Source: Bacteroidia bacterium | Lineage (GTDB): Bacteria; Bacteroidota; Bacteroidia; JAIBAJ01 | NCBI GenBank assembly: GCA_019695265.1 | Contig: JAIBAJ010000004.1 | Coordinates: 402-64,401, forward strand | Length of the DNA stretch: 64,000 bases | Reading direction: 5' to 3' | In this document: positions 4,244 to 63,903 of the stretch, one piece after another | Numbering within the stretch: position 1 is the first letter of the stretch | Layout: every line of letters starts with the position of its first letter | The notes under the pieces: generated by a model | What the model saw: the letters and a program-made list of their open reading frames with translations, nothing else | Told to the model about the DNA's origin: nothing | Databases searched by the model: none | Program-made: the position numbers and the translations under genes

Positions 4244-4297
4244 CCATGGTAGTCTTAGAAAAATAGTTCAGAAACTATTTTTCCAAGACTACCATGG
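4244..4297. terminator. 25-bp near-perfect inverted repeat hairpin between convergent genes; probable bidirectional terminator or RNA-stability hairpin
   Basis: Arms 4244-4268 (CCATGGTAGTCTTAGAAAAATAGTT) and 4273-4297 (AACTATTTTTCCAAGACTACCATGG) pair at 24 of 25 positions around a 4-nt loop. The 3' arm covers the last seven codons and the stop of acpS. Confidence 0.55.
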
Positions 4298-4649
4298 CAA
4301 TGGCAGTTTCTTTGATATGACTTAAACTTACATGAGTTTTCTGAACTCCCATGGATTCGGCCTTTTTTAGTGTTTCCCCATGAAGGAACAGATGAGGTTT
4401 TCCTAATTCATCTAATCGGATTTCAATTTCATGCCAAGCCATTCCTTCTCTCCAACCGGTTCCCAAAGCTTTAAATAAGGCCTCCTTCGCTGCAAACCTG
4501 GCTGCAAAACTTTCTGCATAGTTCTTTTGGGAGTTGCAATAAGTAATTTCGCCTGAATGAAAAAAGCGTTGTTGAGTAATTTCGCCTTTGTCAACCAAAG
4601 ATTTTACTCTTTCCACTTCAATCATGTCTATGCCTGTTCCGAGAATCAT
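4275..4649 (-). CDS. acpS: Holo-[acyl-carrier-protein] synthase
   Basis: MILGTGIDMIEVERV... matches the canonical AcpS N-terminus (GxGxDxxEixR). I chose the ATG at 4649 over the GTG at 4664. Length is about 124 aa. Confidence 0.85.
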   Translation of the reverse strand: MILGTGIDMIEVERVKSLVDKGEITQQRFFHSGEITYCNSQKNYAESFAARFAAKEALFKALGTGWREGMAWHEIEIRLDELGKPHLFLHGETLKKAESMGVQKTHVSLSHIKETAIAMVVLEK

Positions 4650-4729
4650 GAAAAATATTTCCACAAAGAAAGGAAATTTTAACCTTATACCATTCGGATT
4701 AGCATGATAAGCTTGGAGTGATTGGCTTG

Positions 4730-9808: not shown

Positions 9809-9859
9809 GGGTTTAACACAGGTTTTAAGAGAAATTTCAGTCTCTTTTATATTATTTAT

Positions 9860-10013
9860 GCGGGCCGCTTTCGCCATCGGAGTGATTATTAGACTCAAAC
9901 AGTTTCAATAGGCGAAATCGCCGGGCTATCCACTTCAAGTCCTCGTCGCCGAAGGCCCCGAAAGTGTTCGGGACCTTCGGCTCCTGTGGGCTTTCCGTTA
10001 CTATCCCTGCCCG
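9860..10013 (+). repeat. GC-rich structured intergenic element, copy I-1 (type I)
   Basis: Conserved blocks GCGGGCC...GGGCTATCC...TCCTCGTCGCC...CTCCTGTGGGC...CTATCCCTGCCCG. Lies 3' of the S8 gene on the same strand. The core may extend about 15 nt further 3'. Confidence 0.9.
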
Positions 10014-10147
10014 AAGGGCCTGTGCATCCTAGAAGCTTGGTACCTAATCTAAATCAGTCAACTCCTTGTATTTACAAAATTGGTTTTTAAGGCTATGGTA
10101 AACTTCGATTAGTTTACAATCCAAGGACTTTAATTGGAAGTAACTGC

Positions 10148-11088: not shown

Positions 11089-11332
11089 TAACAAGTTCGT
11101 TTTGGGATTAACATGGTTTCTTTAAGTGTCTCTAAAGAACCATTTTTCATTTTCATAATTTGGAAAGTATTATAGCCAAACACATTGGGAAAATTGGTCA
11201 TTGCAAAGTTGTAGGAAGTGGCAGAAATAAAAGATGTTCCAGGTAGGAATGATGTAAATTGCAGGGTAGTATTCGATTTGGAAGTTGAAATACGGAAGGT
11301 GGATTGTAGCACATCACTTGGGACGGAGCACC

Positions 11333-11479
11333 CGGGCAACGATAGAGCGTGATACCCCACAGGACTGTGCAGCGGTAGCGGAGCAGGCCGAGGAGTATTA
11401 GCGATAGCGTGACCCGAACGCACCTTATCAATAGTTGGGGGTAAGCAACTAGCTTTGGAGGTGCGGAAGGGGGCCCGCC
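11333..11479 (-). repeat. GC-rich structured intergenic element, copy II-1 (type II)
   Basis: The plus strand reads CGGGCAACGATAGAGCG...CCCCACAGGAC...CCGAGGAGTA...GCGATAGCGTGACCCGAACGC...GGGGGCCCGCC, the reverse complement of the element consensus. Lies 3' of fumC on the same (minus) strand. Confidence 0.9.
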
Positions 11480-11556
11480 AACTTTAGAAAAATAGGAATA
11501 AAAAAGCCGGATTTATTCTTAGTTAAACCCGGCTTTGGAAGGAAAATGGTCTCCTA

Positions 11557-14607: not shown

Positions 14608-14615
14608 TACCTTTG
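14608..14615 (+). promoter_or_regulatory. -7 box (TACCTTTG) for SRP RNA
   Basis: Exact TAnnTTTG ending 5 nt before the predicted RNA 5' end. A TTTG at 14585-14588 sits at about -33. Confidence 0.65.
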
Positions 14616-14619
14616 CGCC

Positions 14620-14716
14620 GGGCAAGTCTTATACGACCAGCTCCTGGTGAACTCCCCCAGGTCAGGAATGAAGCAAGGGTATCCGGTTGTAGCGGTGCGA
14701 TGTAAGTAGCTTGCCC
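14620..14716 (+). ncRNA. ffs: Small (4.5S-type) signal recognition particle RNA
   Basis: Conserved domain IV sequence CCAGGTCAGGAATGAAGCAAGGG (compare CAGGUCnGGAAnGnAGCAG). The terminal helix GGGCAAG/CTTGCCC closes the molecule. A T-run follows at 14717-14722. Confidence 0.85.
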
Positions 14717-14720
14717 TTTT

Positions 14721-18110: not shown

Positions 18111-19412
18111 TTGAAAGCTTTTCATTCCATTTTTAAGACAACCTTAGGCGTTCTTCTGGTAGGATTATTTTATATTTCTTCAGCAAGTGGCCAATCCAAT
18201 TATTTAAGTAGACTCAATCGATTGTTGGGAGATGGATTATTAAGGGACCAATTTTCTCCTCCTGTGGCATCCAGGGTTTATTTATACCCTAATCTGGCGG
18301 CTTATCAAGCTATCCATCAAGATAGTATTTGGAAGTTCCTGAATGGTTTTTCTGAAATTAGTTTTCCAGATTTTAAGGATTATGATGCGAATTATACAGC
18401 AGCATGGTGTTTTGTTTCGCTTGCCTCTAATTTGTTGTTTTCAGGGAAGGAGTTTCAAATGGAAGCTCAACCCCTATTGGATAGTCTGGCAATGACTTGT
18501 TCAGCTAAAATTTTGGAAAAGTCCAGGGCCTATGCAGATGAAATAGTAAAGCAGGTTATGCTAAGAGCTGGAAATGATGGATATAAACAGAGACTTACCT
18601 ATCTTCGATATACTGTTTCAGAAGGGGATACATCTTATCAATTGACACCTCCTAATTTTTCTGAGCCGGTGGAACCACATTGGGGTACCATAAAAACCTT
18701 AGTAATTGATAACCATTGGGCTTATGAAAATGAAATTCCCAATGTTTTTAGTTTAGATCCTGAATCAAATTTTCAGAAAGAATTGAAAGAGGTTTATGTT
18801 TTGTCACAAAAAAATACAGATTCTACCTTAAATATTGCCAGACATTGGGATTGTAATCCCATTCAACTAGGAATGTCGGGTCATTTAATGCAATTTGGTT
18901 TTAGAATGACACCCAGTCAGCATTGGATGACTGTACTTTGTGATTTGGCAGATACCAAGCAGATTACTATTCAGGATTTATCAATGTTATTTGCCAAATT
19001 AGGTGTTGCTTGTTTTGATGCATTTATTGATTGCTGGTATTTAAAGTACCATTTTAATTCCATCCGGCCCGTTTCAGTAATTACAAAATATATTCAATCG
19101 GATTGGAAACCGGCAATTGAGACTCCGGCATTTCCGGAATATCCCAGCGGACATAGTTTGGTATCTGCTGCTGCCACGGTAATATTAAGTAATTACTTTG
19201 GAGATGATTTTTCATATACAGATCGCACCCAAACAGTTTTTTCTCTCCCGGAATCTAGTTTTTCCAGTTTTAAACAAGCCGCCATTCAAGCTGGAGAAAG
19301 CCGCATTCTGGGTGGAATACATTTCAGGAAGGCTGTAACCGATGGATTTAAACGCGGAGAACAGGTTGGAAAACAAGTTTTGAAAAATTGGAGTCATTTA
19401 AAAACACGATGA
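18111..19412 (+). CDS. PAP2-superfamily / vanadium-dependent haloperoxidase-like protein, secreted
   Basis: Motifs KYHFNSIRP (Kx6RP), PSGHS and SRILGGIH. Signal peptide present. Apparent TTG start with no in-frame ATG upstream. Confidence 0.65.
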   Translation: MKAFHSIFKTTLGVLLVGLFYISSASGQSNYLSRLNRLLGDGLLRDQFSPPVASRVYLYPNLAAYQAIHQDSIWKFLNGFSEISFPDFKDYDANYTAAWCFVSLASNLLFSGKEFQMEAQPLLDSLAMTCSAKILEKSRAYADEIVKQVMLRAGNDGYKQRLTYLRYTVSEGDTSYQLTPPNFSEPVEPHWGTIKTLVIDNHWAYENEIPNVFSLDPESNFQKELKEVYVLSQKNTDSTLNIARHWDCNPIQLGMSGHLMQFGFRMTPSQHWMTVLCDLADTKQITIQDLSMLFAKLGVACFDAFIDCWYLKYHFNSIRPVSVITKYIQSDWKPAIETPAFPEYPSGHSLVSAAATVILSNYFGDDFSYTDRTQTVFSLPESSFSSFKQAAIQAGESRILGGIHFRKAVTDGFKRGEQVGKQVLKNWSHLKTR

Positions 19413-22400
19413 GATTAGTTGTTTTTTTATCCTTGATACTGATTTTTTGGGGCCAAGTCTTCTACTCTTGTGCACAATTCAAGCCCATCCCAGGAATTAC
19501 CTCCGGTGTATTATTTGAAAATACATTGAAAGAAACCAATGAGTTTAATGTGTTTAATCAAAAATATCCCTACTTGAGTTTTAGTGGAGGTGGAATTGCG
19601 GTGGCCGACTTCGATAAGGATGGATTCGAAGATTTATTCCTTATTGGGAATCAGGTTAAGTCAATAATGTATAGGAATTTAGGAGGATTGAAATTTGAAC
19701 AATTGCCTGATGGGTTTGGTATTAATACCAATTCATGGACAAATGGAGTTGCAGTGGCGGATGTAAATAACGATGGTTGGTTGGATGTATTTGTAACCAA
19801 GATGTGCTACCCGGATAGCAGTCATGGGGGAAATAGACTTTTCCTGAATAGGGGGAATTTCAAATTTGAAGAGCGTACCGAGCAATTTGGCCTTTCCTTC
19901 ATTGGAAATTCTTATCATGCTTATTTCCTTGATTATGATAAGGATGGTTTTATGGATATTTATCTTCTGAATCAACCTTTAGAAAGTGTTGCTGAAAACA
20001 CCTTTGATATTTTTAAAAATAGAAAAGAGAAAAATTATCTGTTTTCGGATATACTTTATCACAATGAAGGTGGAAAAAGGTTTAAGAATGTTTCTGAACA
20101 AGCAGGATTATTACAAGAAAATGCTTTTGGATTAAGCGCCGTGGTCGGGGACTTTAATCAGGATGATTTGGTCGATATTTATGTGTGTAACGATTTCCTA
20201 TATCAGGATTTTTTATATATCAATCAGGGAAATGGCAAATTTAAAGAAAGCATAGACCAATACTTTGATCATGTCAGCCTATTTTCTATGGGTTCAACAT
20301 TTAAAGACCTCAATAAAGATGGATTGTCTGACTTGATTACCTTGGATATGAATCCGCCGAATCTAAGTGAATACAAAGTTTCCACCTTTGAAGAACATAT
20401 AGATAAGTTTAATATACGATCAAAGAATCATTTTAACCAAGAAGTAAGAAACATGGTTCACTTGAACAATGGCCAAGGACATTTTTCTGAAGTTGGACAG
20501 TTGCTTGGATTGGCATTTTCAGATTGGAGTTGGTCTGTATTGGCTGAAGATTTTAATGCAGACGGGTTAATGGATGTATTTATTACTAATGGTTTGTATT
20601 ATAATGTCTTAGACCGTGACTTCGTACGATATACCGTCGATAGCATGTTTAAGGCAGGAAATCTATCTTCTTATAAATCCAGGCCTGAAGATAATTTCAG
20701 GTTAATAAAGATGAAACCCAGGAAAGTACCAAATCAATTACATCTACAAACCAATCCTTTACATTTTCCTGTTGATCATCATTTCGGAATTCACCAAAAT
20801 TGGGTTACAACAGCAGCTATATCGGCAGACTTAGATCTGGATGGAGATTTGGATTTAGTTCTATCCAATATGGATACAACAGCTATTGTAATGGAAAACA
20901 CCTTGGTTAATAAGAATTATCTTCAAGTAGCATTTGAAAAGCCAAACCAAGCCTTAAATGCAAAAATTTACGCATATCAGAATGGAGTTCTTTTTTTTCA
21001 AGAGTTGGGCAACAACGGAGGGATTCTATGTTCACAGAGAAACAACGCCTATTTTGCCTTTCCAACCAATTTGCATCTGGACAGTCTGGTTATTAAGTTT
21101 GGGGTAAACAGAAAAGTACTTTATTCCAATGTTAAGATTAATAGAAAAATAGAAATCAAGGAATCCGAATCCTTTATTGATAAGATTGGCAAGTCTTTAA
21201 TTTCAACAGCCATGTCCGGTTTTCCTGAATTTTCTGAACTTGGAAAATTGACAGATTTCAATGATTTTAAGAAGGAACCATTGTTACCGCATCGCCTAAA
21301 TGTTTATGGTCCTTATGGCAGTGCTGCCGATTTAAATGGGGATGGTTTAATGGACTTGGTCGTTGGTGGTGTGGCGAAGGATCCAACCCACCTGTTTTTA
21401 CAGCAAAAGAATGGACATTTTATAGAACAAAAATCTTTTTTTCAATTGGATTCAGCCTGCATTGATACAGATATTGAGTTGGCAGATTTGGATAACGATT
21501 CCGATTTGGACATACTTGTTGTTGGTGGAGGTAATGAAGATAAGAAATTCAATAGTTATTCGGATCGTTTATACTGGAATGATGGAAACGGGAATTTCTC
21601 CAAATGCCTGGATTGTTTACCGGTAGATAGTTTTAGTGGAAGTGAAGTGGAAAGTTTGGATTATGATAAGGACGGTGACTTGGATCTATTTGTAGCTTCC
21701 AGAAATACGCCGGGGCGCTATCCCAAGGTTCCGGAATCTAGGTTGTTGCAAAATACAAAGGGTCATTTTGAAGATGTTACCCCTGCAAGTTTGAAAAAAG
21801 CGGGAATGGTAAATACATGCCTGAGTAAAGATTTTGATCAGGATGGATGGGTTGATTTGATGGTTGCAGGAGAATGGATGCCGGTATTGGTTTTCTGGAA
21901 CCAAGGTGGTTACTTTGATAAGGCCGATACTATTTTACCAACCGGATTCTGGCAACATTTGAATTGGGTAGAAGGAAAGAAGGATGGATTTCTAATTGCT
22001 GGAAATTGGGGAGAAAATACGAGAGTAATTCCCGGTCCGAATCAGGAAGTTCGCTTATACACAACAGATATTGACGAGAATGGCAGCCTTGACCCTTTGA
22101 TTTGTACTTTACAGGATGGAGTTTATAAACCTGTGTTATCCTATGAGAAAATATCCAAAGAACTGCCAATTTTTAGAAAGAAATTTCTGCGTTACACTAG
22201 TTACAAACAGGCGAGTATTCAGGATTGTTTAGGTTCAAAATTCCCGCTTGCCGACGTGAAATATTGCCAAGAATCCCAATCGAAAGTGTTAGTTTATTCC
22301 GGAAATAGGGAATTTAATAATTGTGAAACCCCATTGGAGTTGCAGTTTTCACCGGTTTTGACTTCTCTCCAGGTCGGAACTTCTACATCGGGAAATCCCT

Positions 22401-22642
22401 TAGTTTATTTTCATGGTAATTTTTTCGAAAATACACCAGAAGTTGGAAAAATGGATGCCGGTAAAGGGTTAGTAGTAGAGTTACTGCCGAAATTAAAGGC
22501 GCAATTGTTTCCTAATTTCTTTCCAAAAGTATCCGGAAATGTTAGAAAAATTATTCCTATTCAAACGAGTTTAGGTAGTTTTTGGTTGATTTTGAAAAAT
22601 GGAGAGACTCCGGAACTGATACAGCAATTGAAATCAAAATGA
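19409..22642 (+). CDS. FG-GAP/VCBS repeat protein (CRTAC1/ASPIC-like), secreted
   Basis: Repeated D.D.DG..D blocks (DFDKDGFEDLF, DVNNDGWLDVF, DLDLDGDLDLV and others). The start MRLVVFLSLILIF overlaps the upstream stop as ATGA. Confidence 0.75.
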   Translation: MRLVVFLSLILIFWGQVFYSCAQFKPIPGITSGVLFENTLKETNEFNVFNQKYPYLSFSGGGIAVADFDKDGFEDLFLIGNQVKSIMYRNLGGLKFEQLPDGFGINTNSWTNGVAVADVNNDGWLDVFVTKMCYPDSSHGGNRLFLNRGNFKFEERTEQFGLSFIGNSYHAYFLDYDKDGFMDIYLLNQPLESVAENTFDIFKNRKEKNYLFSDILYHNEGGKRFKNVSEQAGLLQENAFGLSAVVGDFNQDDLVDIYVCNDFLYQDFLYINQGNGKFKESIDQYFDHVSLFSMGSTFKDLNKDGLSDLITLDMNPPNLSEYKVSTFEEHIDKFNIRSKNHFNQEVRNMVHLNNGQGHFSEVGQLLGLAFSDWSWSVLAEDFNADGLMDVFITNGLYYNVLDRDFVRYTVDSMFKAGNLSSYKSRPEDNFRLIKMKPRKVPNQLHLQTNPLHFPVDHHFGIHQNWVTTAAISADLDLDGDLDLVLSNMDTTAIVMENTLVNKNYLQVAFEKPNQALNAKIYAYQNGVLFFQELGNNGGILCSQRNNAYFAFPTNLHLDSLVIKFGVNRKVLYSNVKINRKIEIKESESFIDKIGKSLISTAMSGFPEFSELGKLTDFNDFKKEPLLPHRLNVYGPYGSAADLNGDGLMDLVVGGVAKDPTHLFLQQKNGHFIEQKSFFQLDSACIDTDIELADLDNDSDLDILVVGGGNEDKKFNSYSDRLYWNDGNGNFSKCLDCLPVDSFSGSEVESLDYDKDGDLDLFVASRNTPGRYPKVPESRLLQNTKGHFEDVTPASLKKAGMVNTCLSKDFDQDGWVDLMVAGEWMPVLVFWNQGGYFDKADTILPTGFWQHLNWVEGKKDGFLIAGNWGENTRVIPGPNQEVRLYTTDIDENGSLDPLICTLQDGVYKPVLSYEKISKELPIFRKKFLRYTSYKQASIQDCLGSKFPLADVKYCQESQSKVLVYSGNREFNNCETPLELQFSPVLTSLQVGTSTSGNPLVYFHGNFFENTPEVGKMDAGKGLVVELLPKLKAQLFPNFFPKVSGNVRKIIPIQTSLGSFWLILKNGETPELIQQLKSK

Positions 22643-22723
22643 TGGTGGATAGGGGTTAAACCCCATAGGTTCTGCTGGAAAGTCAATTATATCGAATCAA
22701 TTATTTTTTAAAATACGAGTTAT

Positions 22724-22864
22724 GCGGGCCCCCTCCGCCCAACACTTGGTTGGCTAAACCCCAAGCAACTTGTCAGGGCGTTCGGGTCACGCTATCGGCT
22801 GTAGTCCAAGCCACTCCGCTAAACGCTGCGTTGGCTTGGAGCTACTTGCCTCTATCGTTGCCCG
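22724..22864 (+). repeat. GC-rich structured intergenic element, copy II-2 (type II)
   Basis: GCGGGCCCCCTCCGCCC...GGGCGTTCGGGTCACGCTATCGGCTGTAGTCC...GGAGCTACTTGCCTCTATCGTTGCCCG. Lies 3' of the VCBS gene on the same strand, between convergent genes. Confidence 0.9.
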
Positions 22865-22946
22865 AGGCGCAACCTCTAAGTTTAAATGCTAAGCTAACTT
22901 GTAACGGTATCTATGAGCTTCCTGCAAAGGGAATCATTTTCAAACC

Positions 22947-24287
22947 TTATTTGGGTTGCAGCGGAATTCCAACTTTAGAAAGAATATTAATTCCAATAGA
23001 TTTGCCTTGTTTATTGCCGGCTTGAATACCATTTTGGTAATGTATTCCACCATAAAGCCTGCTTAATCCTGCTTCATCTGCAGCTTGTAGAAAAGATGAA
23101 AAGGTTCTTGGTAAATAGGGGAGACCGATGATGGAAAAAGTGGAATCGGTAAAGGAATAAGTAGGACCTGCAAATGCCGTTAGAATTTGGGCTGCCGCCG
23201 CTGAAATTCCACTATGTCCGCTTGTAAACTCCGGGAAGGGTGGAGTAACTATTAGTGGCATCCAATCCGGATCTATCAACTCCCGGATATACGTGACCGG
23301 CCTTACCAATTCATATTTGTATTTGTCGTGCCAAACAGAAATAACAGCGTCTGCCATAGCCATGGAACATAATGCATAAACCAAACTTGTTTTTTCGAAG
23401 GAGTACTTTTCATGTTTGCAGAATTGGGCAATTATGCAAATCCAATGAGAAACCGGGTTAATATGTCTTCGTGGTTTAGGAATATGACCAACAAAATTGT
23501 TTAAATCAGGATTATCGTCCCAATACAAGGCTATGTTTCTTTGTTCAGGGGTAAGTTCATTGGAAGTTTGATAGATATTATGGACCATAGAATAGAAATC
23601 GCTATTCTTTTCGGTACTGTAAGGAATTTCAAAAGATTGAGAAAACTGGGAGGCCGAGTCAATCAGGAAAGTTTGAAGCGTTTCCCAATGTGGTTCCAAT
23701 GCACTTCGAAACTCAGGTGGAGTTGGTTTCCATTTCCCCGGTTGATTGCTGAAAATGTAATTAGGAAGTGCTTTACTAGCAGCAAAACCATCTGCAGCAG
23801 CCCTGTTATTACAAGCTAACGCAATGGAATCTCCTAGTTCTAAAGAGTTTTTTATGGTAGATTCTCCTATACCTGTTTTACGAAAGTAGTTTAAATGCTT
23901 TTTAATTAATGAATCTGCAGCATATTCCCGATAAATATGTTTTATAGCCGTTTTATAAAATGCTTGGATGGCCGCAATTTCAAAATTAATATCGCCTGTT
24001 TTTGCCTTCTGGGGAAACTTAAAACCACGAACAACTTTCCCTAACTGTATAGTTTTACCGGAGGAAGTGCTGTATGCTTGGTACAAAGAAAGATTGCAAT
24101 AGGCAAAAGTTCTGGAAGCCAATAATGGATTAAATCCATCCTTAATCATTTGTTCAGTTAATAACTGATTCCATTCATGGATTACGTGAGATGGTTGGGA
24201 TTGGGAAATGGATGTAAATGAACCTCCTAGTAAAAGCATTAGGAAGAAGCTGGCAGCTTTATTCAAAAAGTTTGTATTCCAATACAT
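22947..24287 (-). CDS. PAP2-superfamily / vanadium-dependent haloperoxidase-like protein, secreted (second copy)
   Basis: Motifs KYKYELVRP, TSGHS and SRLYGGIH. It is a distant paralog of 18111..19412. Confidence 0.65.
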   Translation of the reverse strand: MYWNTNFLNKAASFFLMLLLGGSFTSISQSQPSHVIHEWNQLLTEQMIKDGFNPLLASRTFAYCNLSLYQAYSTSSGKTIQLGKVVRGFKFPQKAKTGDINFEIAAIQAFYKTAIKHIYREYAADSLIKKHLNYFRKTGIGESTIKNSLELGDSIALACNNRAAADGFAASKALPNYIFSNQPGKWKPTPPEFRSALEPHWETLQTFLIDSASQFSQSFEIPYSTEKNSDFYSMVHNIYQTSNELTPEQRNIALYWDDNPDLNNFVGHIPKPRRHINPVSHWICIIAQFCKHEKYSFEKTSLVYALCSMAMADAVISVWHDKYKYELVRPVTYIRELIDPDWMPLIVTPPFPEFTSGHSGISAAAAQILTAFAGPTYSFTDSTFSIIGLPYLPRTFSSFLQAADEAGLSRLYGGIHYQNGIQAGNKQGKSIGINILSKVGIPLQPK

Positions 24288-34310: not shown

Positions 34311-34366
34311 TTGGATTTTTTAAACCAGATTCAGCAGCATCTTGTTGAGTGTGGTCAAGTTTATTT

Positions 34367-34517
34367 GGCGGGTCCCCGGCAACCCTCCCCGGCTTTTTTA
34401 TTTTATTTCGAACGGATATTAACCGGGTTGCCGCGTCGGGCTATTCGTTCCTAGTCCTCGTCCCCCTAGGCTAACGCCGTCGGGGTCCTGTGGGCTATCC
34501 ACTGCTATCCCTACCCG
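34367..34517 (+). repeat. GC-rich structured intergenic element, copy I-2 (type I), left member of a head-to-head pair
   Basis: GGCGGGTCC-CGGCAACCC...GGGTTGCCG...GGGCTATTCG...TCCTCGTCCCC...GTCCTGTGGGCTATCC...CTATCCCTACCCG. Lies 3' of arfB on the same strand. Confidence 0.9.
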
Positions 34518-34605
34518 GAAGTGTCGTGCAAACCCTGACTTTCGGCCTTTTAATTGTATGTTACCTGCAATTATTCAGGAAATGCATAACTGTTTGGGTT
34601 TGGGT

Positions 34606-34746
34606 CGGGCAACGATAGAGCCAAATAACCCACAGGATACCGCAGCCTTAGCGGAGGTAGCCGAGGATTATGGGCGATAGCGTGACCTTTTCGCATGCAC
34701 AATGTCTGTTGGTTGAGATAAATTTTATAGCGAAAAGGGGCCCGCA
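34606..34746 (-). repeat. GC-rich structured intergenic element, copy II-3 (type II), right member of a head-to-head pair
   Basis: The plus strand reads CGGGCAACGATAGAGCC...CCCACAGGATACCGCAGCCTTAGCGGAGG...GGGCGATAGCGTGACCTTTTCGC...GCGAAAAGGGGCCCGCA. Confidence 0.9.
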
Positions 34747-34981
34747 TAAAAATTATCCTAGAAGCTAACTACCTACAAAGAATGATTTTGTTCATGAAAG
34801 CAAATCCAAAAAAGACGCTTACAGGTTTGAAAACCCTTGTCGGAACTAAACCATTGCAACTGAAAATAGTCGAAACACCATAAATTGGACAAGATGATTA
34901 AAGTCAGGATTGGTTGATATGTAACAATTGTAACCTTAATTTTGGTGGAGTAGACTCACTTTTGCTGAAAAATTATTTCAA

Positions 34982-45567: not shown

Positions 45568-45621
45568 TTCCTAAAGAATTTGCATATTTAGGTAGTACTA
45601 AATGCAGTTTTTGATGATGAT

Positions 45622-45757
45622 GCGGGTGCCTTCGCATTCACCTATTGCCTCTTTCTAAAATGTAGTAAGGCTCAGGCCCGGGCTATCGCTGTTACTCCTC
45701 GGTCCACTACGCTAAGGCTGCGTGGCCCTGTGGGGTAACTTGCTCTATCCCTACCCG
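45622..45757 (+). repeat. GC-rich structured intergenic element, copy I-3 (type I), left member of a head-to-head pair
   Basis: GCGGGTGCCTT...AAGGCTCAGGCCCGGGCTATCGCTGTTACTCCTCGGTCC...CGCTAAGGCTGCG...CCCTGTGGGGTAACTTGCTCTATCCCTACCCG. Lies 3' of the STAS gene on the same strand. Confidence 0.9.
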
Positions 45758-45861
45758 GACCCAAGCCCGAACTTTTGGGAAATGGATATACAATTTTGCT
45801 CATCCAGGGTGTTGGTGTGTTGATTACCCGGTCATTGCTGCAACTGTTTGGTTTTGCAGCC

Positions 45862-46005
45862 CGGGCAACGATAGAGGCGAGTAGCTCCCGGCAGAAATGG
45901 CTTCAGTGCGTTGGCAGCCGGGACTACAGACGATAGCGTGACCCGAAGCCCATTCCCAAAACTTATATATTTAAATAAATTTCAGTTGGGCGAAGGGGGC
46001 CCGCC
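45862..46005 (-). repeat. GC-rich structured intergenic element, copy II-4 (type II), right member of a head-to-head pair
   Basis: The plus strand reads CGGGCAACGATAGAGGCGAGTAGCTCCCGGC...GCCGGGACTACAGACGATAGCGTGACCCGAAGCCC...GGGCGAAGGGGGCCCGCC. Lies 3' of the minus-strand gene 46258..46677. Confidence 0.9.
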
Positions 46006-46203
46006 AAAAAACAAATGGAATAATTGGAAAGTTATACCGAATGTACATTATGTTTAGTCCAATTTTAGGTATTAATTTTTATTGAGAAAATTGGCCTAAC
46101 ATTCTGTATACTCGGCATTTACCAATCTAAATTTATAAAAGCCTTCGGACTATTTATAAATTAAAATTGGTATTAAATTTCTGTATTCCGGACCAACCGG
46201 TTC

Positions 46204-49347: not shown

Positions 49348-50187
49348 TTAACTAAGTTTAGTTTTCGATAGATTGGAATGTTGGATTATTTTTTTGCTTA
49401 ATTCTATAAAATCAGCTACACTTAATTGTTCTGCGCGTTTGCTGAGTTCGGGCCATTGGGGTAGTGGTTGGGGTAATAGTGGTTTTAATGCATTACTCAA
49501 CATTTTCCTACGTTGATTAAACCCCATTTTCACTACTTGTATAAATGATTTTTCATCGCAATCCAATTGTTTGACCTGATTTCTGGTAAGTCGTAATACG
49601 CCGGATTTTACTTTAGGTGGTGGATTAAAAACATGTTCATCTACAGTGAACAAATATTCAGCATTATAAAAGGCTTGAAGCAATACACTTATAATACCGT
49701 AGTCCTTATTTCCGGGTCCGGAAGCAACCCGTTGAGCTACTTCTTTTTGAAACATACCGGTAATTTCGGGTACCTGGTCTCGGTGTTCAAAGGCTTTAAA
49801 AAGGATTTGGGAAGAAATGTTATATGGGAAATTTCCTACGATAGCTAAAGGTTCATTCCCCCATTCTTTCCAATCCATTTGAAGGAAATCCCCTTGGATA
49901 AGGTGAAGTCCTTTGAATTTTTCTTTATTTAAAATAAGGTATTCGACGCTTTCGTTGTCAATTTCTGCTGCCATCAACTGGATGCCGGGTTTAGCAAGCA
50001 GGTAGCGGGTTAAAATTCCTGTTCCCGGACCAATTTCCAGAACTTTGGAATACCCGTTTAATGTAATGGAATCTGAAATTTTTTCTGCTATGGAATTGTC
50101 TTTAAGGAAATGTTGGCCTAAGTGTTTTTTTGCTCGAACCTGATCGGATGAATAGTCGGACTTTTTCTTTGGGTGTTTACCTTTCAT
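49348..50187 (-). CDS. rsmA: 16S rRNA (adenine1518/1519-N6)-dimethyltransferase
   Basis: KKHLGQHFLKD and LEIGPGTGILTRYL SAM motif, plus GNFPYNISSQILFK. Confidence 0.9.
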   Translation of the reverse strand: MKGKHPKKKSDYSSDQVRAKKHLGQHFLKDNSIAEKISDSITLNGYSKVLEIGPGTGILTRYLLAKPGIQLMAAEIDNESVEYLILNKEKFKGLHLIQGDFLQMDWKEWGNEPLAIVGNFPYNISSQILFKAFEHRDQVPEITGMFQKEVAQRVASGPGNKDYGIISVLLQAFYNAEYLFTVDEHVFNPPPKVKSGVLRLTRNQVKQLDCDEKSFIQVVKMGFNQRRKMLSNALKPLLPQPLPQWPELSKRAEQLSVADFIELSKKIIQHSNLSKTKLS

Positions 50188-51622
50188 GTTGCGTTAGGTT
50201 TTCCCAGGCCAAAGCGTAGTGATTGGTCAAGGAAATTTGGGTGTAAAGATCGTTGTATTTATCTTGTTCAGGAAGAAAATACAAGGAAACCCCTTTTTCT
50301 GACAACGACACCAATTCTGATTCAGTGAGATAGAATCGGAGGTGAGGAACCAATTTGGGGTTGTTGTTTAGGGCATAAACCATTAACTCGTTATACCACC
50401 ATCCACAAATAATTATGCTTGTTGCATATTCAGGCTGGTCTAAAGTAGTTGCAACCTCTTTGCAAAAACTTTCTTTGTTGTGGCGTTTAGTAAAATCGGA
50501 ATAAAGGGGGCCGGTTGCAGGATCGAAAAACAGTTCCTGATCACGGATTTTATAAACTTTAGCCCAGTTTGAATGCTTACTTCCCCGGTTGGCATCTGTT
50601 AAACCTAGTCCGAAAATAAAAGACGAAACCATGAGACATAAGAGAACAAATTTGTAAAGCATTTCCAATAAACCTACATTTAAGGCAAGGATGATAAAAG
50701 GGATTGCCGGAATCCAATATCCGGATTTTTGGGGCAATCGAAGGTATGAAAAAGTATACAAGAGCGTGATCAGGATAGCTAGGCCTACCATCACTTTGTT
50801 TTTTTTTGTTTGAATTTCTAATTTAGAAAATCCAATAAATAAGGTTTGCGAAATGCATGCTGATAGTATACCCAGCAAACCAATTACACCCCACACACCA
50901 AAAGTGGCTTTAAAGAGTACCTTTTCCCAGGAAGGGTAAGGGAATTGATCGTAGTATTGGAAAAATCGGTATCCATAGGATTGTAGAAGGGGTAAGTAAC
51001 AGATAGTGCCAATAATCAAACTAAGCATGACCAAGTTAACTGTACTTTTTATTTCTGTTTTGTCACGGTTGATGGTCAAAATCCAGGACAAGAAAGGGAG
51101 AAGGAAAATACCGGACGTAATACGGGAGCCAATAGCCAGACCTAAAAATAGAGCAGCCCATAAAAAGGAGGATTCGATCAAAAAGTAAAAGGACCATAAA
51201 ACGAATGCAAGGGTAAAACAATAGTCAATGGTATAGGTGCTACTAATAAATATTACCGGAACGAAGGCCAATGCTAATGCAGAGAGGTATGCAGCTTGTA
51301 AGTCTAGTTTATTGATTATTTTATAAAAAGCAACGGAAGCAAAGGCACAAGCTATTGCCGCGAGTAAGTTCCACCAAAAAGGTGAAGCATAAGGAAGGAG
51401 GAGGTAAAGGAATTCTGGAACCGGATGTCCGGGTAACCGTGAAGGTTCGTAGATGCCGGAATGGAGGGTTTGCCAGATAGCAAGAGGTGTTCCCCAACTA
51501 TCTTCTTCGGCTCCGTAGCCACAAAACAAAAAAGGAATTCGGCTGATTAATACAAGCAGGAATAGGGATACCAGTGTCCAATCCGGTTTGTATTTAAGGT
51601 TTAAATTCAAGACTGCCAGCAA
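50177..51622 (-). CDS. Polytopic membrane protein, GT-C fold glycosyltransferase-like (ArnT/PMT family 39-like)
   Basis: More than 10 TM segments. An acidic first-loop motif GYGAEEDSW is present. TTG start, and no in-frame ATG near the N-terminus. Confidence 0.5.
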   Translation of the reverse strand: MLAVLNLNLKYKPDWTLVSLFLLVLISRIPFLFCGYGAEEDSWGTPLAIWQTLHSGIYEPSRLPGHPVPEFLYLLLPYASPFWWNLLAAIACAFASVAFYKIINKLDLQAAYLSALALAFVPVIFISSTYTIDYCFTLAFVLWSFYFLIESSFLWAALFLGLAIGSRITSGIFLLPFLSWILTINRDKTEIKSTVNLVMLSLIIGTICYLPLLQSYGYRFFQYYDQFPYPSWEKVLFKATFGVWGVIGLLGILSACISQTLFIGFSKLEIQTKKNKVMVGLAILITLLYTFSYLRLPQKSGYWIPAIPFIILALNVGLLEMLYKFVLLCLMVSSFIFGLGLTDANRGSKHSNWAKVYKIRDQELFFDPATGPLYSDFTKRHNKESFCKEVATTLDQPEYATSIIICGWWYNELMVYALNNNPKLVPHLRFYLTESELVSLSEKGVSLYFLPEQDKYNDLYTQISLTNHYALAWENLTQHER

Positions 51623-51672
51623 CTTTGCAAAGTAAACGGATTTAGGAATTAATTGGTATTTGATAAGAAAAC

Positions 51673-51706
51673 AAAAAAGGCGACCTTATGCAGATCGCCT
51701 TTTTTG
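51673..51706 (-). terminator. Rho-independent terminator after 51726..52772
   Basis: On the minus strand, AAGGCGAT...GTCGCCTT stem (one G:U) followed by TTTTTTG. Confidence 0.6.
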
Positions 51707-51725
51707 TGAAAAGAAACTGGATGGA

Positions 51726-52772
51726 TTAATGAGCCACAGTGAAGTTTTTGGTTAAACGGCTTCCATTGGTAACCAAATTGAAAATATAATTACCATTGGC
51801 CAGGTTTTGAGTATTGATGTTTAAGGAATGGTTACCTTTTACACGGATACCTGCTGGAACATTAGCAATCATTTTTCCGCTCATATCGATGATTTCGTAA
51901 GAAGTACTGGCAGTGTTGCGTAAAGTGAAATTAACTACCATGTGATCATTTGCAGGATTTGGGAATAATCCCATTCCTTTAGTTTCGTCAAAATCTTTGA
52001 TACCTGCAGGGCCAATATAACCGTTACCTACCACAGCAATATCATCGATAGAGATTAAATTGTCGTCGTGGCTATTGTGCAAGAAAGCGATATAAACATC
52101 CATTCCTACGTAGGCATCCAAACTGATTTCGAAAGGTTTAAGAACACCGTGGAAACGAAGAGAATCATTGTCGTATTCGATGTAAGAACCATCCAAACCA
52201 TGCACATAACCATCGGAAAATTCAAATTCGGAGTAGCTGCTATCCGGAATTAAATCGCCTTGGCTAATAAATTCTGCAGCTTTAAAAAGAGTATCGGTGA
52301 ATTGGTCGGTGTGCTCATTGGTTCCGATGGAGGCAACAACAGCATATCCGTCGCAGTAACGAGGTGTTTGGAAAGGGGCTGATTTCCACAATAATTTAAC
52401 AGAAGCGTCATTAACGTGGATGGATGGTAAAATAAGCATGTTTTGAACCGGTGTGGTAGCATCATTTGTCCAGGAGTTGGATGCAAATACTACGTTTGTG
52501 TCACCATCCGGAGTGATAGAATCGGCAACAGAAAATGCGTAAGTTAAAAACCATTGGTCTGAGCGGCTAGAACCACTGGCATCAGCCAAACCATCGCCGT
52601 CAATATCGTACCAAAAGGTATCGTACAAAGCATTGGATGCTACTGCATCGATAATAATATGGTCGAAGGTATCTCCTTGGAAATTTTCCCAAAGCAAAGT
52701 ATCGGTTGAAGTTTGGGACATACCAACCAAGGATAAAAAAGCTAAAGAAAGAGTAGTAAACAGTTTTTTCAT
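51726..52772 (-). CDS. Secreted protein with a T9SS type A CTD (choice-of-anchor-like N-domain, function unknown)
   Basis: Signal peptide present. The C-terminus GLFPNPANDHMVVNFTL...GNYIFNLV...TKNFTVAH is a CTD. Confidence 0.6.
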   Translation of the reverse strand: MKKLFTTLSLAFLSLVGMSQTSTDTLLWENFQGDTFDHIIIDAVASNALYDTFWYDIDGDGLADASGSSRSDQWFLTYAFSVADSITPDGDTNVVFASNSWTNDATTPVQNMLILPSIHVNDASVKLLWKSAPFQTPRYCDGYAVVASIGTNEHTDQFTDTLFKAAEFISQGDLIPDSSYSEFEFSDGYVHGLDGSYIEYDNDSLRFHGVLKPFEISLDAYVGMDVYIAFLHNSHDDNLISIDDIAVVGNGYIGPAGIKDFDETKGMGLFPNPANDHMVVNFTLRNTASTSYEIIDMSGKMIANVPAGIRVKGNHSLNINTQNLANGNYIFNLVTNGSRLTKNFTVAH

Positions 52773-58280: not shown

Positions 58281-60269
58281 TTAGTTTTTAAGGATTTCGA
58301 ACTCAATTCGGCGGTTTAGTGCCATGCCTTCCGGGTTTTCGCTTCCGTCTTTGTTTTTGTTGGAAGCAACCGGCATAGATTCACCAAAACCAACTGCTTT
58401 GAGGCGATCGGCGGCAATTCCTCTTTTGACAAGGGCTTGTAGAACCGATTCGGCTCGTTTTTGAGAAAGGGTTTTGTTGTACGCTTCTTCTCCTTTATCG
58501 TCGGTATAGCCGTTGATTTGTATTTGTACTTCGGGGAAGGCTTTTAAGAATTGGGCCAGACGGTTTAATTCGTTTAGTGATTCCTGGCGAAGTTCGTATT
58601 TGTCAGAGTCGAAGAAGAGGTTGTTAAGGGCAATTCGGGTTCCTGGTTTAGCCTTTTTAAGTTCGATGGCTTTTTCTACTTTTCGGAAGTCTTTGGCTGG
58701 TTCGATCAGGAAGTTTTCGGTATGGAAGAGGTAATCGTCTTTAATTACGGCAATGCCATAGTTTTTACCGGAAGGTAGGGAAACCACATATTTACCTGTT
58801 TTGCTGTTGGAAACCAATTCGGCTACTACTTCATTTTTTTCATTATCGATAATTTGGATTCCGGCTTCGGTTGGTGCTTTGGATTTTTCGTCGGTGATGG
58901 AACCGGTAACCAGGGTAAGCGGGCTGAACGGTTGGTCTTTTTTATTGTTTTTGGGGATGCTAACGCTGTAAATGTCATAATCACCCATACCGCCCGGACG
59001 TGCAGAGGAGAAGTACCCTGTTTCACCGCTGGCCGAAAGCACAAAGAAAATATCGTCATCGGGGGTATTGATTGGTGAACCCATATTAACGGGTTGGCTC
59101 CATTTTCCATCTTTGAAAACTGCTTTAAAAATGTCGTAACCGCCCATGGAATTATGTCCGTTGGAGCTGAAATACAAGGTTTTGCCATCGGGGTGGAAGA
59201 ATAGACCATCTTCATCATAGGCTGTATTTATTTCGGGACCCAGGTTTTGTGCCGGACCCCAATTGCCTTTTTCATCTTTTTTAGACCAGTAGATATCTCT
59301 GCCGCCCAGGCCTCCGTTTCCGTCCCGGGTAAAGAACAGGGTTCGTTCGTCGGCGCTCAGAGAGATGGAGTGTTCCGTTGCGGAGGAATTAATATTTTCG
59401 TTGAGTTTAACCGGTTTGGTCCATTGGTCACCATCCAGACGGCTTTGGTAGATATCGCCGTTGAGGAAGAGGAAAATGGTTTGGCCATCGGCTGATAATC
59501 CCAGGGCTGCATCGTGCTTTTTGGTATTTAAGGGAGCTCCCACATTGGAAGCTTCGGTCCATTGGTTGTTAATGTTGTAGGAACGGTAGATGTCTTCAAA
59601 AGGCAGTTCGTCGAATGGGTCTAAACCACCGGAGGAATTTCGGCGGGAGGTGAAATAGAGTTCTGATTCATCGGCTGAGATAATGGGAGCATAATCCGGT
59701 TTGTCGGAGTTAAGTTTAGCTCCCAGGCTTTGGATTTTAACCTGTACCGGATGTTTAAGCAATTCGATACCGTTTCTACATTCCTGAATGCGTTTATCCA
59801 TTATTTTGGAAGGGTTGCTAATGCTCATTTCTCCATTGACATCGGGAGGAGTATTGACCATGAGGGTTCCGATGGTATTGTCGAGTTTAATGGAAGAGGT
59901 TTTTTTGGAATCCAGGTAGTTTTTGTAGGCAATGTATTGTTCAATTGCTTTATCGAATTGTTGATTAAGGTGATAAGCTCTGGCAAGCAGGAAACTACGT
60001 TCGGTGGATTGGGTAGTGGCCGATTTTTCGAGGTATTTTAGGGCTTTGGGTTTTTCGGAGGAATGTAAATAAGCGATTCCCAACAAAAAATTAGCTTCAC
60101 TATTTGCCGGAGAAGCAGCTATTTCTTTCTGAAGCAGTTCAATTGCTTTTTTGTTTTGACCTGGTTCGTCGTTTAGGAGGTGTTTTACCTCGTCGAGGGA
60201 CGATTGAGCAGAAGAAAGTAAGCTGGAGGTAGCAATAAAAAAGAGGAAGATGGTTGCCTTTTTTACCAT
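58281..60269 (-). CDS. TPR + TolB-like beta-propeller (PD40) + OmpA C-terminal domain protein
   Basis: PD40-like repeats (ELYFTSRR, TLFFTRDG, TLYFSSNG, GYFSSAR). OmpA block INGYTDDKGEEAYNKTLSQKRAESV...NRRIEFEI. Confidence 0.8.
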   Translation of the reverse strand: MVKKATIFLFFIATSSLLSSAQSSLDEVKHLLNDEPGQNKKAIELLQKEIAASPANSEANFLLGIAYLHSSEKPKALKYLEKSATTQSTERSFLLARAYHLNQQFDKAIEQYIAYKNYLDSKKTSSIKLDNTIGTLMVNTPPDVNGEMSISNPSKIMDKRIQECRNGIELLKHPVQVKIQSLGAKLNSDKPDYAPIISADESELYFTSRRNSSGGLDPFDELPFEDIYRSYNINNQWTEASNVGAPLNTKKHDAALGLSADGQTIFLFLNGDIYQSRLDGDQWTKPVKLNENINSSATEHSISLSADERTLFFTRDGNGGLGGRDIYWSKKDEKGNWGPAQNLGPEINTAYDEDGLFFHPDGKTLYFSSNGHNSMGGYDIFKAVFKDGKWSQPVNMGSPINTPDDDIFFVLSASGETGYFSSARPGGMGDYDIYSVSIPKNNKKDQPFSPLTLVTGSITDEKSKAPTEAGIQIIDNEKNEVVAELVSNSKTGKYVVSLPSGKNYGIAVIKDDYLFHTENFLIEPAKDFRKVEKAIELKKAKPGTRIALNNLFFDSDKYELRQESLNELNRLAQFLKAFPEVQIQINGYTDDKGEEAYNKTLSQKRAESVLQALVKRGIAADRLKAVGFGESMPVASNKNKDGSENPEGMALNRRIEFEILKN

Positions 60270-60354
60270 GATTTTAAGTATGTAGGTATTTTTTAACGAC
60301 TGCCTTGGTAAAAAGGTTCGATTGGAAATGTGAAGGTAGATTGGGCTTGCACCC

Positions 60355-60508
60355 CGGGCAACGATAGAGCCAAGTAGCCCACAGGAGCCCGGCGCCCGAA
60401 TTTATTCGGGGCGGTGGGCGACGAGGACTACAGGCGATAGCGTGACCTGAACGCCTTGCACCAGGTTTAGGTAAAGATCAAAAGCCGCTTGGCGTGAAGG
60501 GGCCCGCC
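60355..60508 (-). repeat. GC-rich structured intergenic element, copy II-5 (type II)
   Basis: The plus strand reads CGGGCAACGATAGAGCCAAGTAGCCCACAGGAGCCC...GGGCGACGAGGACTACAGGCGATAGCGTGACCTGAACGCC...GGCGTGAAGGGGCCCGCC. Lies upstream of, and co-oriented with, the minus-strand OmpA gene. Confidence 0.9.
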
Positions 60509-60572
60509 AAATAAAACAACTCCCACCAACATTGGCAATAAATAACCACCTTTGTCGCAGAATTTTAAACAC

Positions 60573-61754
60573 ATGAGTTCAAGTTTTCTAACCCATCTTC
60601 AAAACGAATTACAATCGATTGAAACGGCAGGATTATTTAAAAGGGAGCGAATTATTACCGGTCCGCAAGGTGCTGATATTCAAATTAGTACAGGGCAAGA
60701 GGTAATAAATTTTTGTGCTAATAATTACCTTGGATTATCGTCTCATCCAAAAGTGTTGGAGGCCGCAGCAAAGACCCTTGAAACCCATGGTTATGGCATG
60801 AGTAGTGTTCGATTTATTTGCGGTACACAAGACATTCATAAAGAGTTGGAGGAAAAAATTTCTGACTTTTTGGGTTTGGAAGATACCATTTTGTATGCGG
60901 CAGCTTTTGATGCCAATGGAGGTGTTTTTGAACCTCTGTTTGGTGAGGAGGATGCCATTATAAGTGATGAGTTAAACCATGCCAGTATTATTGATGGAGT
61001 AAGGCTTTGTAAGGCTAAACGTTACCGATATAAAAACAATGATATGAACGATTTGGAAGCCCAACTTAAAGCGGCAGATGGAGCTCGTTTTAAAATTGTG
61101 GTTACCGACGGGGTATTTAGCATGGATGGATATATTGCTCAATTGGATAAAATAAGGGCTTTGGCCGATCGATACGGGGCTTTGGTGATGACAGATGAAT
61201 GTCATGCCCTGGGCTTTTTGGGTTCTACCGGACGAGGAACCCCGGAGCATTGTGGGGTACATGGTAAAATTGATATTGTTACCGGTACCTTAGGTAAGGC
61301 TTTGGGAGGAGCCATGGGAGGTTTTACTTCGGGTAAGAAAGAAGTTATAGCTTTATTGCGTCAGCGCAGTCGTCCATATTTATTTTCCAATTCTTTGGCA
61401 CCAGCCATAGTTGGAGCCAGCATTGCCGTGATGGATATGTTAAATGAAACTACGGCATTACGTGATAAAGTGATGGAAAACGCTTTGTATTTTAGAAAGG
61501 GAATGACGGAAGCAGGATTTGATATTAAGCCCGGAATTCATCCCATTACCCCGGTGATGTTATACGATGCCAAATTGGCTCAATCTTTTGCCGAAAAATT
61601 GTTGGCTGAAGGCATCTATGTCATTGGATTCTTTTATCCGGTGGTGCCGAAGGAGCAGGCCAGAATTCGGGTTCAGGTATCGGCAGCGCATGAAAAACAT
61701 CACCTGGATAAAGCCATTGCAGCATTTACTAAAGTTGGAAAGGAATTGTTATAA
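60573..61754 (+). CDS. kbl: Glycine C-acetyltransferase (2-amino-3-ketobutyrate CoA ligase)
   Basis: [25 protein letters not shown] and TLGKALGG (PLP Lys). I chose the ATG at 60573 over the TTG at 60552. Confidence 0.9.
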
Positions 61755-63424: not shown

Positions 63425-63525
63425 AGATACTATTCGAAGTTTATTTTTATATCCGTGGAATGGATTCCGTAGTCAATTGATTCGCAAATAGTTGCCAAGT
63501 CGGTTGTTAAAAAAATGTATTATTG

Positions 63526-63660
63526 GGCGGGCCCATCGCAGAAGTGGAGTGTTTCAAAAGAGCAGAAGCAAGGCGAATGGCCGGGCTATCGCCTGTACTC
63601 CTCGTCGCCCTTGGCTAGCGCCGCGGGCTCCTGTGGGGTACCTGGCTCTATCCCTGCCCG
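63526..63660 (+). repeat. GC-rich structured intergenic element, copy I-4 (type I)
   Basis: GGCGGGCCCATCGC...GCGAATGGCCGGGCTATCGCCTGTACTCCTCGTCGCCC...GGGCTCCTGTGGGGTACCTGGCTCTATCCCTGCCCG. I counted 87 G+C in 135 nt. Lies upstream of, and co-oriented with, the gene starting at 63904. Confidence 0.9.
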
Positions 63661-63903
63661 ACGCTACTACAGTCATTTGGGGTTAATTTAGTTGGGCAAG
63701 AAGCCAGAATGAAGGTTTAGCAGGTTGAAGTGCAAGAAAAGAGAAAAGCAGGAGTTATGAACAGGAATAACTAGTTTTTTGGCTTGTATTTTGGCAAAAA
63801 TGCCCTTTATCTGTAAAAATAGTTAAGCCTGGTTTGGGAGCTGGAATACATTGATTGGAAATTATTTCCTTTGTTGACATTATAGTTTTATATATTATTT
63901 TTT

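Follow-up and report, generated by a model that had tools for sequence, protein, structure and literature searches.

A repeated Bacteroidia element with a predicted three-helix fold appears to be an enlarged relative of the Flavo-1 motif

Results

The window analyzed here is a 64,000-nucleotide stretch of a Bacteroidia bacterium contig (JAIBAJ010000004.1, positions 402 to 64,401). Within it, a 303-nt spacer separates two divergent genes, one encoding an OmpA/TPR protein (58281-60269, - strand) and the other encoding glycine C-acetyltransferase (60573-61754, + strand), and the spacer contains the element studied here, which we call A60. Repeat finding and a gapped signature pattern indicated that a core of 135 to 160 nt occurs nine times in the window, with the segment at 60355-60508 as one of its copies, in line with the multiple copies reported by a first-pass annotation of the sequence. 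The pattern matched eight times in the window when zero matches were expected by chance. The segment has a G+C content of 61%, compared with 39% for the window, and the repeat copies range from 50 to 64% GC in a genome of 39% GC. A covariance model was built from the nine window copies, which share the common orientation 5'-CGGGYA..GATAG..GATAGC..CCCGC-3', and was used to call copies and their extents. The core of A60 was placed at 60352-60511 on the + strand by the covariance model (134.2 bits), by the pattern match (60355-60507), and by the consensus fold, and a probable 5' extension (..TTGGGCTTGCACCC) that is weakly conserved among window copies lies at 60326-60354. The first-pass annotation had located the core at 60355-60508, but the element extends 40 to 90 nt farther on its 5' side (+ orientation) and about 4 nt farther on its 3' side.

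The nine window copies are all intergenic; five of them read in one direction and four in the opposite one. A covarying swap at the base of the long arm (P2, below) separates them into two subtypes. Subtype II has the signature CAACGATAG..GATAGCGTGACC and subtype I has the signature YAGGGATAG..GATAGCCCG, and the two match the groups labeled II and I in the first-pass annotation. A60 belongs to subtype II, with the P2 base ACG/CGU, as do D11 (11330-11482, pattern 11333-11478, + strand, 131.5 bits) and E22 (22720-22867, pattern 22724-22864, - strand, called by the covariance model), the latter of which lies between convergent genes. H99 (9856-10016, pattern 9860-10013, 109 bits) and G63 (63523-63663, pattern 63527-63660, 129.5 bits) are subtype I copies on the - strand. 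The other four form two inverted doublets, in each of which a subtype I copy on the - strand is followed by a subtype II copy on the + strand as the right half: F45m (45618-45760, pattern 45622-45757, P2 base GGG/CCC, 120.6 bits) with B45p (45859-46008, pattern 45862-46004, 111 bits), and I34m (about 34364-34520, 117.4 bits) with C34p (34603-34749, pattern 34606-34745, 140.7 bits).

Several other features were detected in the window. A second, unrelated repeat at 46032-46178 adjoins B45p and is 89% identical to L067:831-977 and L075:2986-3129 of a related genome. A full-length Bacteroidales small SRP RNA was found at 14613-14720 (+ strand, 104 bits). A match to STnc250 at 51624-51711 (+ strand, 34.7 bits against a cutoff of 42, E = 0.005) falls below threshold in the spacer between the genes at 50177-51622 and 51726-52772 and is probably due to chance. 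At 4244-4297, a nearly perfect inverted repeat of 25 nt that encloses a 4-nt loop resembles a bidirectional terminator hairpin and lies between convergent genes (3395-4237, + strand, and 4275-4664, - strand). No tRNA or tmRNA was found in the window, and an origin of the element from either was rejected.

The first-pass annotation had proposed, from compensatory base changes, that the element adopts a conserved fold of two arms with a terminal helix closing it, and had suggested RNAalifold on a copy alignment as a check. RNAalifold recovered the two-arm model from the nine window copies on either strand, with double changes in 16 of about 30 pairs. A larger set of 89 full-length copies comprised the 9 from the window, 78 from 48 loci of OZ260106.1 (the 4.43-Mb chromosome of an uncultured Bacteroidia metagenome-assembled genome [MAG]), 1 from a Sediminibacterium-binned contig of the sample from which OZ260106.1 comes, and 1 from a Cyclobacteriaceae MAG. 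In these 89 copies, 89.2% of cells were paired versus 73.0% in column shuffles, none of 500 shuffles reached 89.2%, and pairing dropped to 23 to 45% when partners were slid by 1 to 3 columns. Double changes occurred in 22 of 29 pairs and in 395 cells, compared with 111 cells in the shuffles. Another 45 copies, taken as a separate set from nine metagenomes, bring the total of full copies to 134; they were 86.6% paired, with double changes in 20 of 29 pairs. We conclude that the two-arm fold is confirmed, because covariation controlled by shuffling and sliding was found in the 89 copies and covariation was found again in the separate set of 45; the distant Flavo-1 members described below support it as well. 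The Sediminibacterium-binned contig, CBDIPL010000005.1 (L010 and L058), is probably a duplicate or mis-binned piece of the OZ260106.1 organism; L058:4649-4796 and 1997-2145 score the same as OZ260106.1 L006:4940-5087 and 2288-2436 (93.3 and 76.2 bits).

The consensus predicts that the unit is a three-way junction of helices P1, P2, and P3 followed by a CCAAA tail, and its parts are given here on the + strand of A60. P1 pairs CGGGC (60355-60359) with GCCCG (60502-60506), after which the tail occupies 60507-60511. Closure of the whole element by its GC-rich ends had been anticipated, and the five pairs of P1 are 97% paired, with the innermost being C-G in 64 copies and U-A in 22. The long arm P2 (60361-60443), which is the counterpart of Flavo-1, was delimited by the consensus fold and pair counts. 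It begins with ACG (60361-60363) paired to CGU (60441-60443) and continues through two opposed GAUAG strands (60363-60367 and 60436-60440), GCC/GGC (60369-60371 and 60433-60435), GUAG/CUAC (60374-60377 and 60428-60431), a mismatch of C60378 with A60427, and CC/GG (60379-60380 and 60425-60426). Tipward of the CC/GG pairs are the conserved loops ACA-G-GA and GA-C-GA, followed by GCCC/GGGC (60387-60390 and 60416-60419) and an apical hairpin (60393-60413). At the basal pair of P2, 46 copies have G-C and 43 have A-U; at the pair above it, 67 have G-C and 22 have C-G; and at one pair of a P2 helix, 49 have G-C, 31 have C-G, and 9 have A-U. The basal GCC/GGC, GTAG/CTAC, and GCCC/GGGC helices that had been reported for the second arm are thus all present, and the recurrent apical 13-mer was found as the shared sequence CGCTAAGGCTGCG.

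The shorter arm, P3 (60446-60501), pairs CC-UGA-ACGCC (60446-60455) with GGCGU-GAA-GGG (60491-60501), includes tandem G.A mismatches, and encloses an AT-rich loop (60456-60490). It contains the ACGCC/GGCGT stem that had been quoted for A60, and as had been described for this arm, the strands differ between copies yet pair: the variable stem has a mean length of 12 bp, its 5' arm exists in 41 distinct versions across 89 copies, and the z score relative to shuffles is -3.3. In one subfamily of 15 copies, a core of about 100 nt is invariant and in the apical stem of the long arm as many as 5 of 7 positions differ, with the changes fully compensated.

The opposed GAUAG strands near the base of P2 correspond to a pair of strands, CTATC opposite TCTAT, that had been described as a strictly conserved 5x5 internal loop. 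The site is indeed conserved, but it is better read as two invariant A-U pairs (U60365-A60439 and A60366-U60438) flanked by A.G and G.A purine-purine mismatches. Strictness applies to one strand more than to the other: the first GATAG is kept in 86 of 89 genomic copies and in all 45 metagenomic copies, whereas the second varies among GATAGC, AATAGC, and GAAAGC in the 89 copies. That the conserved loop is a recognition site for a protein or ligand, as had also been put forward, is plausible, and a ligand-sensing role is unlikely because the repeat occurs hundreds of times and in either orientation relative to genes.

The first-pass annotation had folded the reverse of the strand that is probably under constraint. 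The + strand of A60 is the better candidate because 175 of 247 noncanonical cells are A.G or G.A when read on it, unpaired conserved positions are purine-rich on it, and its fold is more stable than that of the reverse complement in 69 of 89 copies, with a mean difference of 4.4 kcal/mol. All Flavo-1 matches (below) likewise fall on the strand equivalent to the + strand of A60. An excess of G.U over A.C was considered as an indicator of RNA and was uninformative; the two were about equally rare, so the covariation does not tell RNA from single-stranded DNA.

Rfam searched at gathering thresholds returned no match for the element and only the SRP RNA elsewhere in the window. In E-value mode, however, the long arm of GGG-type copies matched Flavo-1 (RF01705) at 26 to 30 bits, below the 42-bit gathering cutoff. 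The best match was in H99 (9915-10015, 30.3 bits, E = 0.022), I34m gave a subthreshold match of 26.4 bits (34430-34519), and two others scored 27.9 and 27.4 bits. No match at E <= 10 was obtained for 60320-60540, which contains the subtype II copy A60. The Flavo-1 blocks GGGAUWG .. GNAWAGCCCGAC, which surround short helices and purine-rich loops, are present in subtype I copies, and A60 has ACGAUAG .. GAUAGCGUGACC instead, a covarying swap of the basal pairs.

In the reciprocal direction, the covariance model of the window copies (R1) found Flavo-1 seed members at full length, from P1 to the tail, on the Bacteroides plasmids p5482 (NC_004703.1, 37.3 bits, E = 6e-10) and pBF9343 (NC_006873.1, 20.2 bits, E = 3.6e-5). 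When seed rows were inspected with their flanks, 10 of 10 showed a closing helix, a second variable hairpin, and a CCAAA-like tail, with P1 being GCGUG/CACGC or the compensated variants GCGUU/AACGC and GCAUU/AAUGC. The Flavobacterium johnsoniae seed row carries the matching blocks GCGUGAGGGAUAGAAGUGGAAAGCCCGCAG..GCGAGGACUUGUAACGGAUAGCCCGACC, and conservation of the blocks GGGAUAG, CCCACAG, GCGAGGAC, and GAUAGCCCGACC reaches from Flavobacteriia to Bacteroidia and extends to plasmids. Like Flavo-1, the element occurs in Bacteroidota, on the same strand, in multiple copies, and with no fixed gene association; both have an arm of short helices split by purine-rich loops and covarying stems of variable length, and the blocks GGGAUAG..GGAAAGCCCACAG..GCGAGGACUUG..GGAUAGCCCGACC are near-identical in subtype I copies. 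Unlike Flavo-1, the element has CGGGC/GCCCG rather than GCGUG/CACGC as P1, swaps the P2 base to ACG/CGU in subtype II, has a much longer P3 with an AT-rich loop of 30 to 45 nt, adds a 5' extension of 40 to 90 nt and frequent inverted doublets, and reaches hundreds of copies per genome where Flavo-1 has tens. Based on the subthreshold matches on the same strand, the reciprocal model match, and the flank architecture shared with the seed rows, we conclude that the element is no new class but a branch of the Flavo-1 family that has diverged, grown larger, and become highly amplified. The two-arm model is more complete than the curated Flavo-1 motif, the Rfam model of which covers the long arm alone.

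The 3' end of the unit is sharp, as similarity between copies stops about 4 bases past CCCGC, after the tail and about 9 nt beyond the last hairpin. The tail is CCCGCCAAA in 46 of 89 copies. At the other end, the 5' extension of 40 to 90 nt has subfamily-specific sequence (up to 90 nt in the related genome); the possibility that the extensions are independent repeats that served as targets was rejected because they occur solely next to the core. Copies less than 600 nt apart have their 5' ends facing in 15 cases versus 1, and one copy of such a close pair is usually of the GGG type and the other is not. A doublet at L002:3978-4489 and another elsewhere on the chromosome, at L075:7214-7757, share 87% identity across the entire unit of about 545 nt, spacer included, and the homology breaks off exactly at the outer CCCGCC(A)AA ends. 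Doublet ends form perfect terminal inverted repeats of about 12 bp, single units have no terminal inverted repeats though they too are multicopy, and no target-site duplication was found at five doublets or at single units.

The spacer of the L002/L075 doublet consists of A-rich short repeats. Microsatellite-like A-rich tracts such as (GAAAAGA)n and (AAAAATT)n form doublet spacers at L002:4121-4342, L075:7364-7614, and L083:7250-7403 and also flank many single copies, for example, 3' of L078:4191, L081:6182, and L019:4670. The spacers of inverted doublets are themselves partly palindromic. A palindromic repeat, TTAAACCCAGATTACGCATTAGAAATCGTAATCTGGGTT, recurs near the 3' end of many OZ260106.1 copies (L083:7060-7100, the 3' flanks of L024 and L113, and upstream regions in L094, L039, and L080).

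All copies are intergenic. Of the copies for which both neighbors were called, 28 have a convergent gene pair around them, 38 a tandem pair, and 8 a divergent pair; the corresponding background counts are 45, 172, and 44. We conclude that copies are enriched between convergent genes and that promoter-bearing spacers are avoided. Many copies lie 18 to 100 nt past a stop codon, and in tandem contexts 20 were co-oriented and 18 to 19 were anti-oriented, such that there was no orientation bias. Strand showed no correlation with position along the 4.43-Mb chromosome and hence no replichore bias. The flanking genes are housekeeping genes, and recurrent neighboring protein families, considered as candidates for a partner, were only housekeeping, surface, and ABC proteins. 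The element carries no open reading frame (ORF) and no terminator-like tail, a Bacteroidetes -7 box (TAnnTTTG) was not found at a fixed position on either strand, and the 5' flanks contained no conserved motif.

No gene for a transposase, RAYT, TnpB, or reverse transcriptase adjoins any of the 134 copies. A HuH-Y1 motif was not found in about 0.65 Mb from element-bearing genomes (the window, about 0.5 Mb of OZ260106.1 loci, and 0.14 Mb of metagenome loci), and the single match given by the scan was in an unrelated chance locus, L056. None of the ORFs in the spacers of inverted pairs was transposase-like, RAYT-like, or TnpB-like. A 311-amino-acid ORF between the copies at 9860 and 11333 had no Pfam match, and its translation appears to start with a signal peptide.

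The window organism is related to OZ260106.1, as glycine C-acetyltransferase is 93% identical at the protein level and genes are about 70 to 78% identical at the DNA level, and the copy sites differ between the two. Two species with genes about 85% identical share one orthologous copy, which is about 95% identical save for a replaced apical hairpin. We conclude that copies turn over between species. In the window (19388-24287), E22 sits between FG-GAP and PAP2 genes that point toward each other, and in the related genome (L132:3984-8573) these genes are codirectional, 3 nt apart, and without a copy; the comparison reads as a rearrangement at the repeat site. Beyond these genomes, related copies occur once or twice each on 80 Bacteroidales plasmids. 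Pattern matches in GC-rich Proteobacteria, Actinobacteria, and others are attributed to chance, as all fail the covariance model, and a phage origin was dropped after none of nine pattern matches in viral contigs was confirmed by that model.

Discussion

Flavo-1 was described by Weinberg et al. in 2010 with no gene association recorded (PMC2864571), has been listed since then among the most abundant candidate small-RNA families of Rfam, and has no function assigned to it in the literature or in Rfam. The locus studied here shows the motif as published to be a single arm of a larger unit with three helices, and the two added helices and the repeat-like behavior are new for the family. The unit has been amplified in certain environmental Bacteroidia, to hundreds of copies that include singlets and inverted doublets. 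These go unannotated because the current Rfam model misses them; a large and diverse alignment is now supplied for a better one.

We consider the best explanation to be that the element is a non-autonomous interspersed repeat of the REP/REPIN type and a relative of Flavo-1, and we hold the chances of this reading to be about even. It is suggested by the conserved fold, the multiplication of singlets and doublets with sharp ends, turnover, and the avoidance of promoter spacers, and mobility is read from the distribution of copies and from the duplicated doublet. The genomic context is typical of REP/REPIN-like selfish or domesticated repeats and not of RNA genes. Several features are shared with REP, BIME, and REPIN sequences (PMC8266576, PMC3116915): intergenic copies in the hundreds, with enrichment at the 3' ends of genes and in the space that separates convergent genes; compensatory upkeep of structure, conserved mismatches within stems, and strand-specific constraint; and a short conserved motif, here GATAG, at the 5' foot of each hairpin. 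As in y/z BIMEs, two different subtypes are paired in inverted orientation with a variable linker between them, and as with REPINs, doublets are copied as units and persist across related species. The element departs from REPs in that its unit is a three-way junction of 150 to 245 nt rather than a hairpin of 20 to 50 nt, its foot is GATAG rather than GTAG, and no RAYT gene was found near any copy. REPs that lie beside Bacteroidetes RAYT genes (PMC6006769) were without Flavo-1 blocks and shared no sequence with the element.

If the element is a repeat of this type, a trans-acting enzyme or a binding protein would recognize its folded single strand as substrate, and that strand would be either DNA that becomes exposed in replication or transfer or RNA made by read-through transcription. 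Recognition would fix the loops and the two GATAG feet while the stems drifted under a pairing constraint, and template-switch correction in DNA hairpins may help the stems to stay paired. A comparable interspersed repeat of about 150 nt is bcr1 of the Bacillus cereus group, which also has a conserved predicted fold and compensatory changes. Repeat bcr1 has a TTTAT target duplication, whereas no target duplication was seen for the element, and the two are unrelated in sequence and phylum. Plasmids of gut Bacteroides have only one or two copies, which is as compatible with a conserved function as with a selfish repeat.

Each rival explanation fails at least one test made here. Rfam files Flavo-1 as a functional host RNA family, and copies might accordingly be small RNAs, or else cis-acting structures within untranslated regions with a role in mRNA protection or processing, with a conserved Bacteroidota protein binding at the purine-rich loops. 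We consider this possibility unlikely, as tandem copies show no orientation preference, neither a conserved promoter motif nor a terminator-like tail was found, G.U is no commoner than A.C, copies number in the hundreds per genome, and inverted doublets are copied whole. Moreover, Flavo-1 matches in the Flavobacterium psychrophilum transcriptome are sense or antisense to transcribed regions, and many are untranscribed (PMC9723704), which agrees with the absence of an orientation preference for the element. What a host RNA would explain is the strong conservation of purine-rich internal loops on the one strand that has the more stable fold, the conservation of sequence blocks from Flavobacteriia to Bacteroidia, plasmids included, the orthologous copy that is more alike (about 95%) than are the surrounding genes (about 85%), and the many copies that closely follow a stop codon.

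A more speculative reading, to which we assign a somewhat smaller probability, is that Flavo-1-type elements are the folded substrate or guide of an unrecognized machinery that is Bacteroidota wide, with the hypervariable yet perfectly paired stems bearing copy-specific information instead of being neutral. Such machinery could be a structure-specific transposase or recombinase of single-stranded DNA or an RNA-guided enzyme.

It seems very doubtful that the element is a gene-less IS200/IS605 derivative, or PATE, in which the fold would be an omega RNA scaffold for a TnpB or IscB protein encoded elsewhere and the 3' flank would be the guide. PATEs that encode omega RNAs are known (PMC10055086), and like them the element is gene-less, structured, and multicopy, with no target-site duplication and a sharp end beside a variable flank; the position of that 3' boundary about 9 nt after the last hairpin, the lack of terminal inverted repeats in single units, and a multihelix fold with covariation would all be in keeping. 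Against such an origin, no tnpB, iscB, or tnpA ORF overlaps or adjoins any copy, and among co-oriented ORFs of at least 150 amino acids ending in or next to the 89 genomic copies, none was tnpB/iscB-like. The element also lacks the strand bias along the 4.43-Mb chromosome and the 5'-flank target motif of such a derivative, no Rfam match to omega-RNA-type families was obtained, and no gene association was recorded for Flavo-1 in 2010.

Least probable of all is a conventional MITE, in which a DDE transposase binds only the terminal TTTGGCGGGNCCC of doublets and the fold is a functionless by-product of a palindrome repaired by template switching: doublets do end in perfect inverted repeats of about 12 bp and each moves as a single unit, and double changes far outnumber G.U intermediates, as expected if arm is copied from arm, but target-site duplications are absent from five doublets and from single units, single units are multicopy without terminal inverted repeats, and hairpin repair alone is insufficient because unpaired loop nucleotides and mismatches are also conserved, on one strand and across Bacteroidota classes. 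The loop nucleotides are conserved even where a plasmid has a single copy, which likewise speaks against a MITE. Riboswitches, terminators, integron attC sites, retrons, and bridge RNAs were set aside on the basis of copy number, mixed orientation, and the absence of a U tract, of arrays, or of an adjacent gene.

The REP/REPIN-type reading reframes the search for a function of Flavo-1 toward a binding or mobilizing protein and a role in single-stranded DNA. On the conjugative plasmid pBF9343 (NC_006873.1), the Flavo-1 copy (L179:719-801) abuts the stop codon of a recombinase-family gene (129-722) and lies upstream of a gene for an ArdC-like single-strand-DNA-binding protein (1147-2157), a setting that may hint at a role in single-stranded plasmid DNA.
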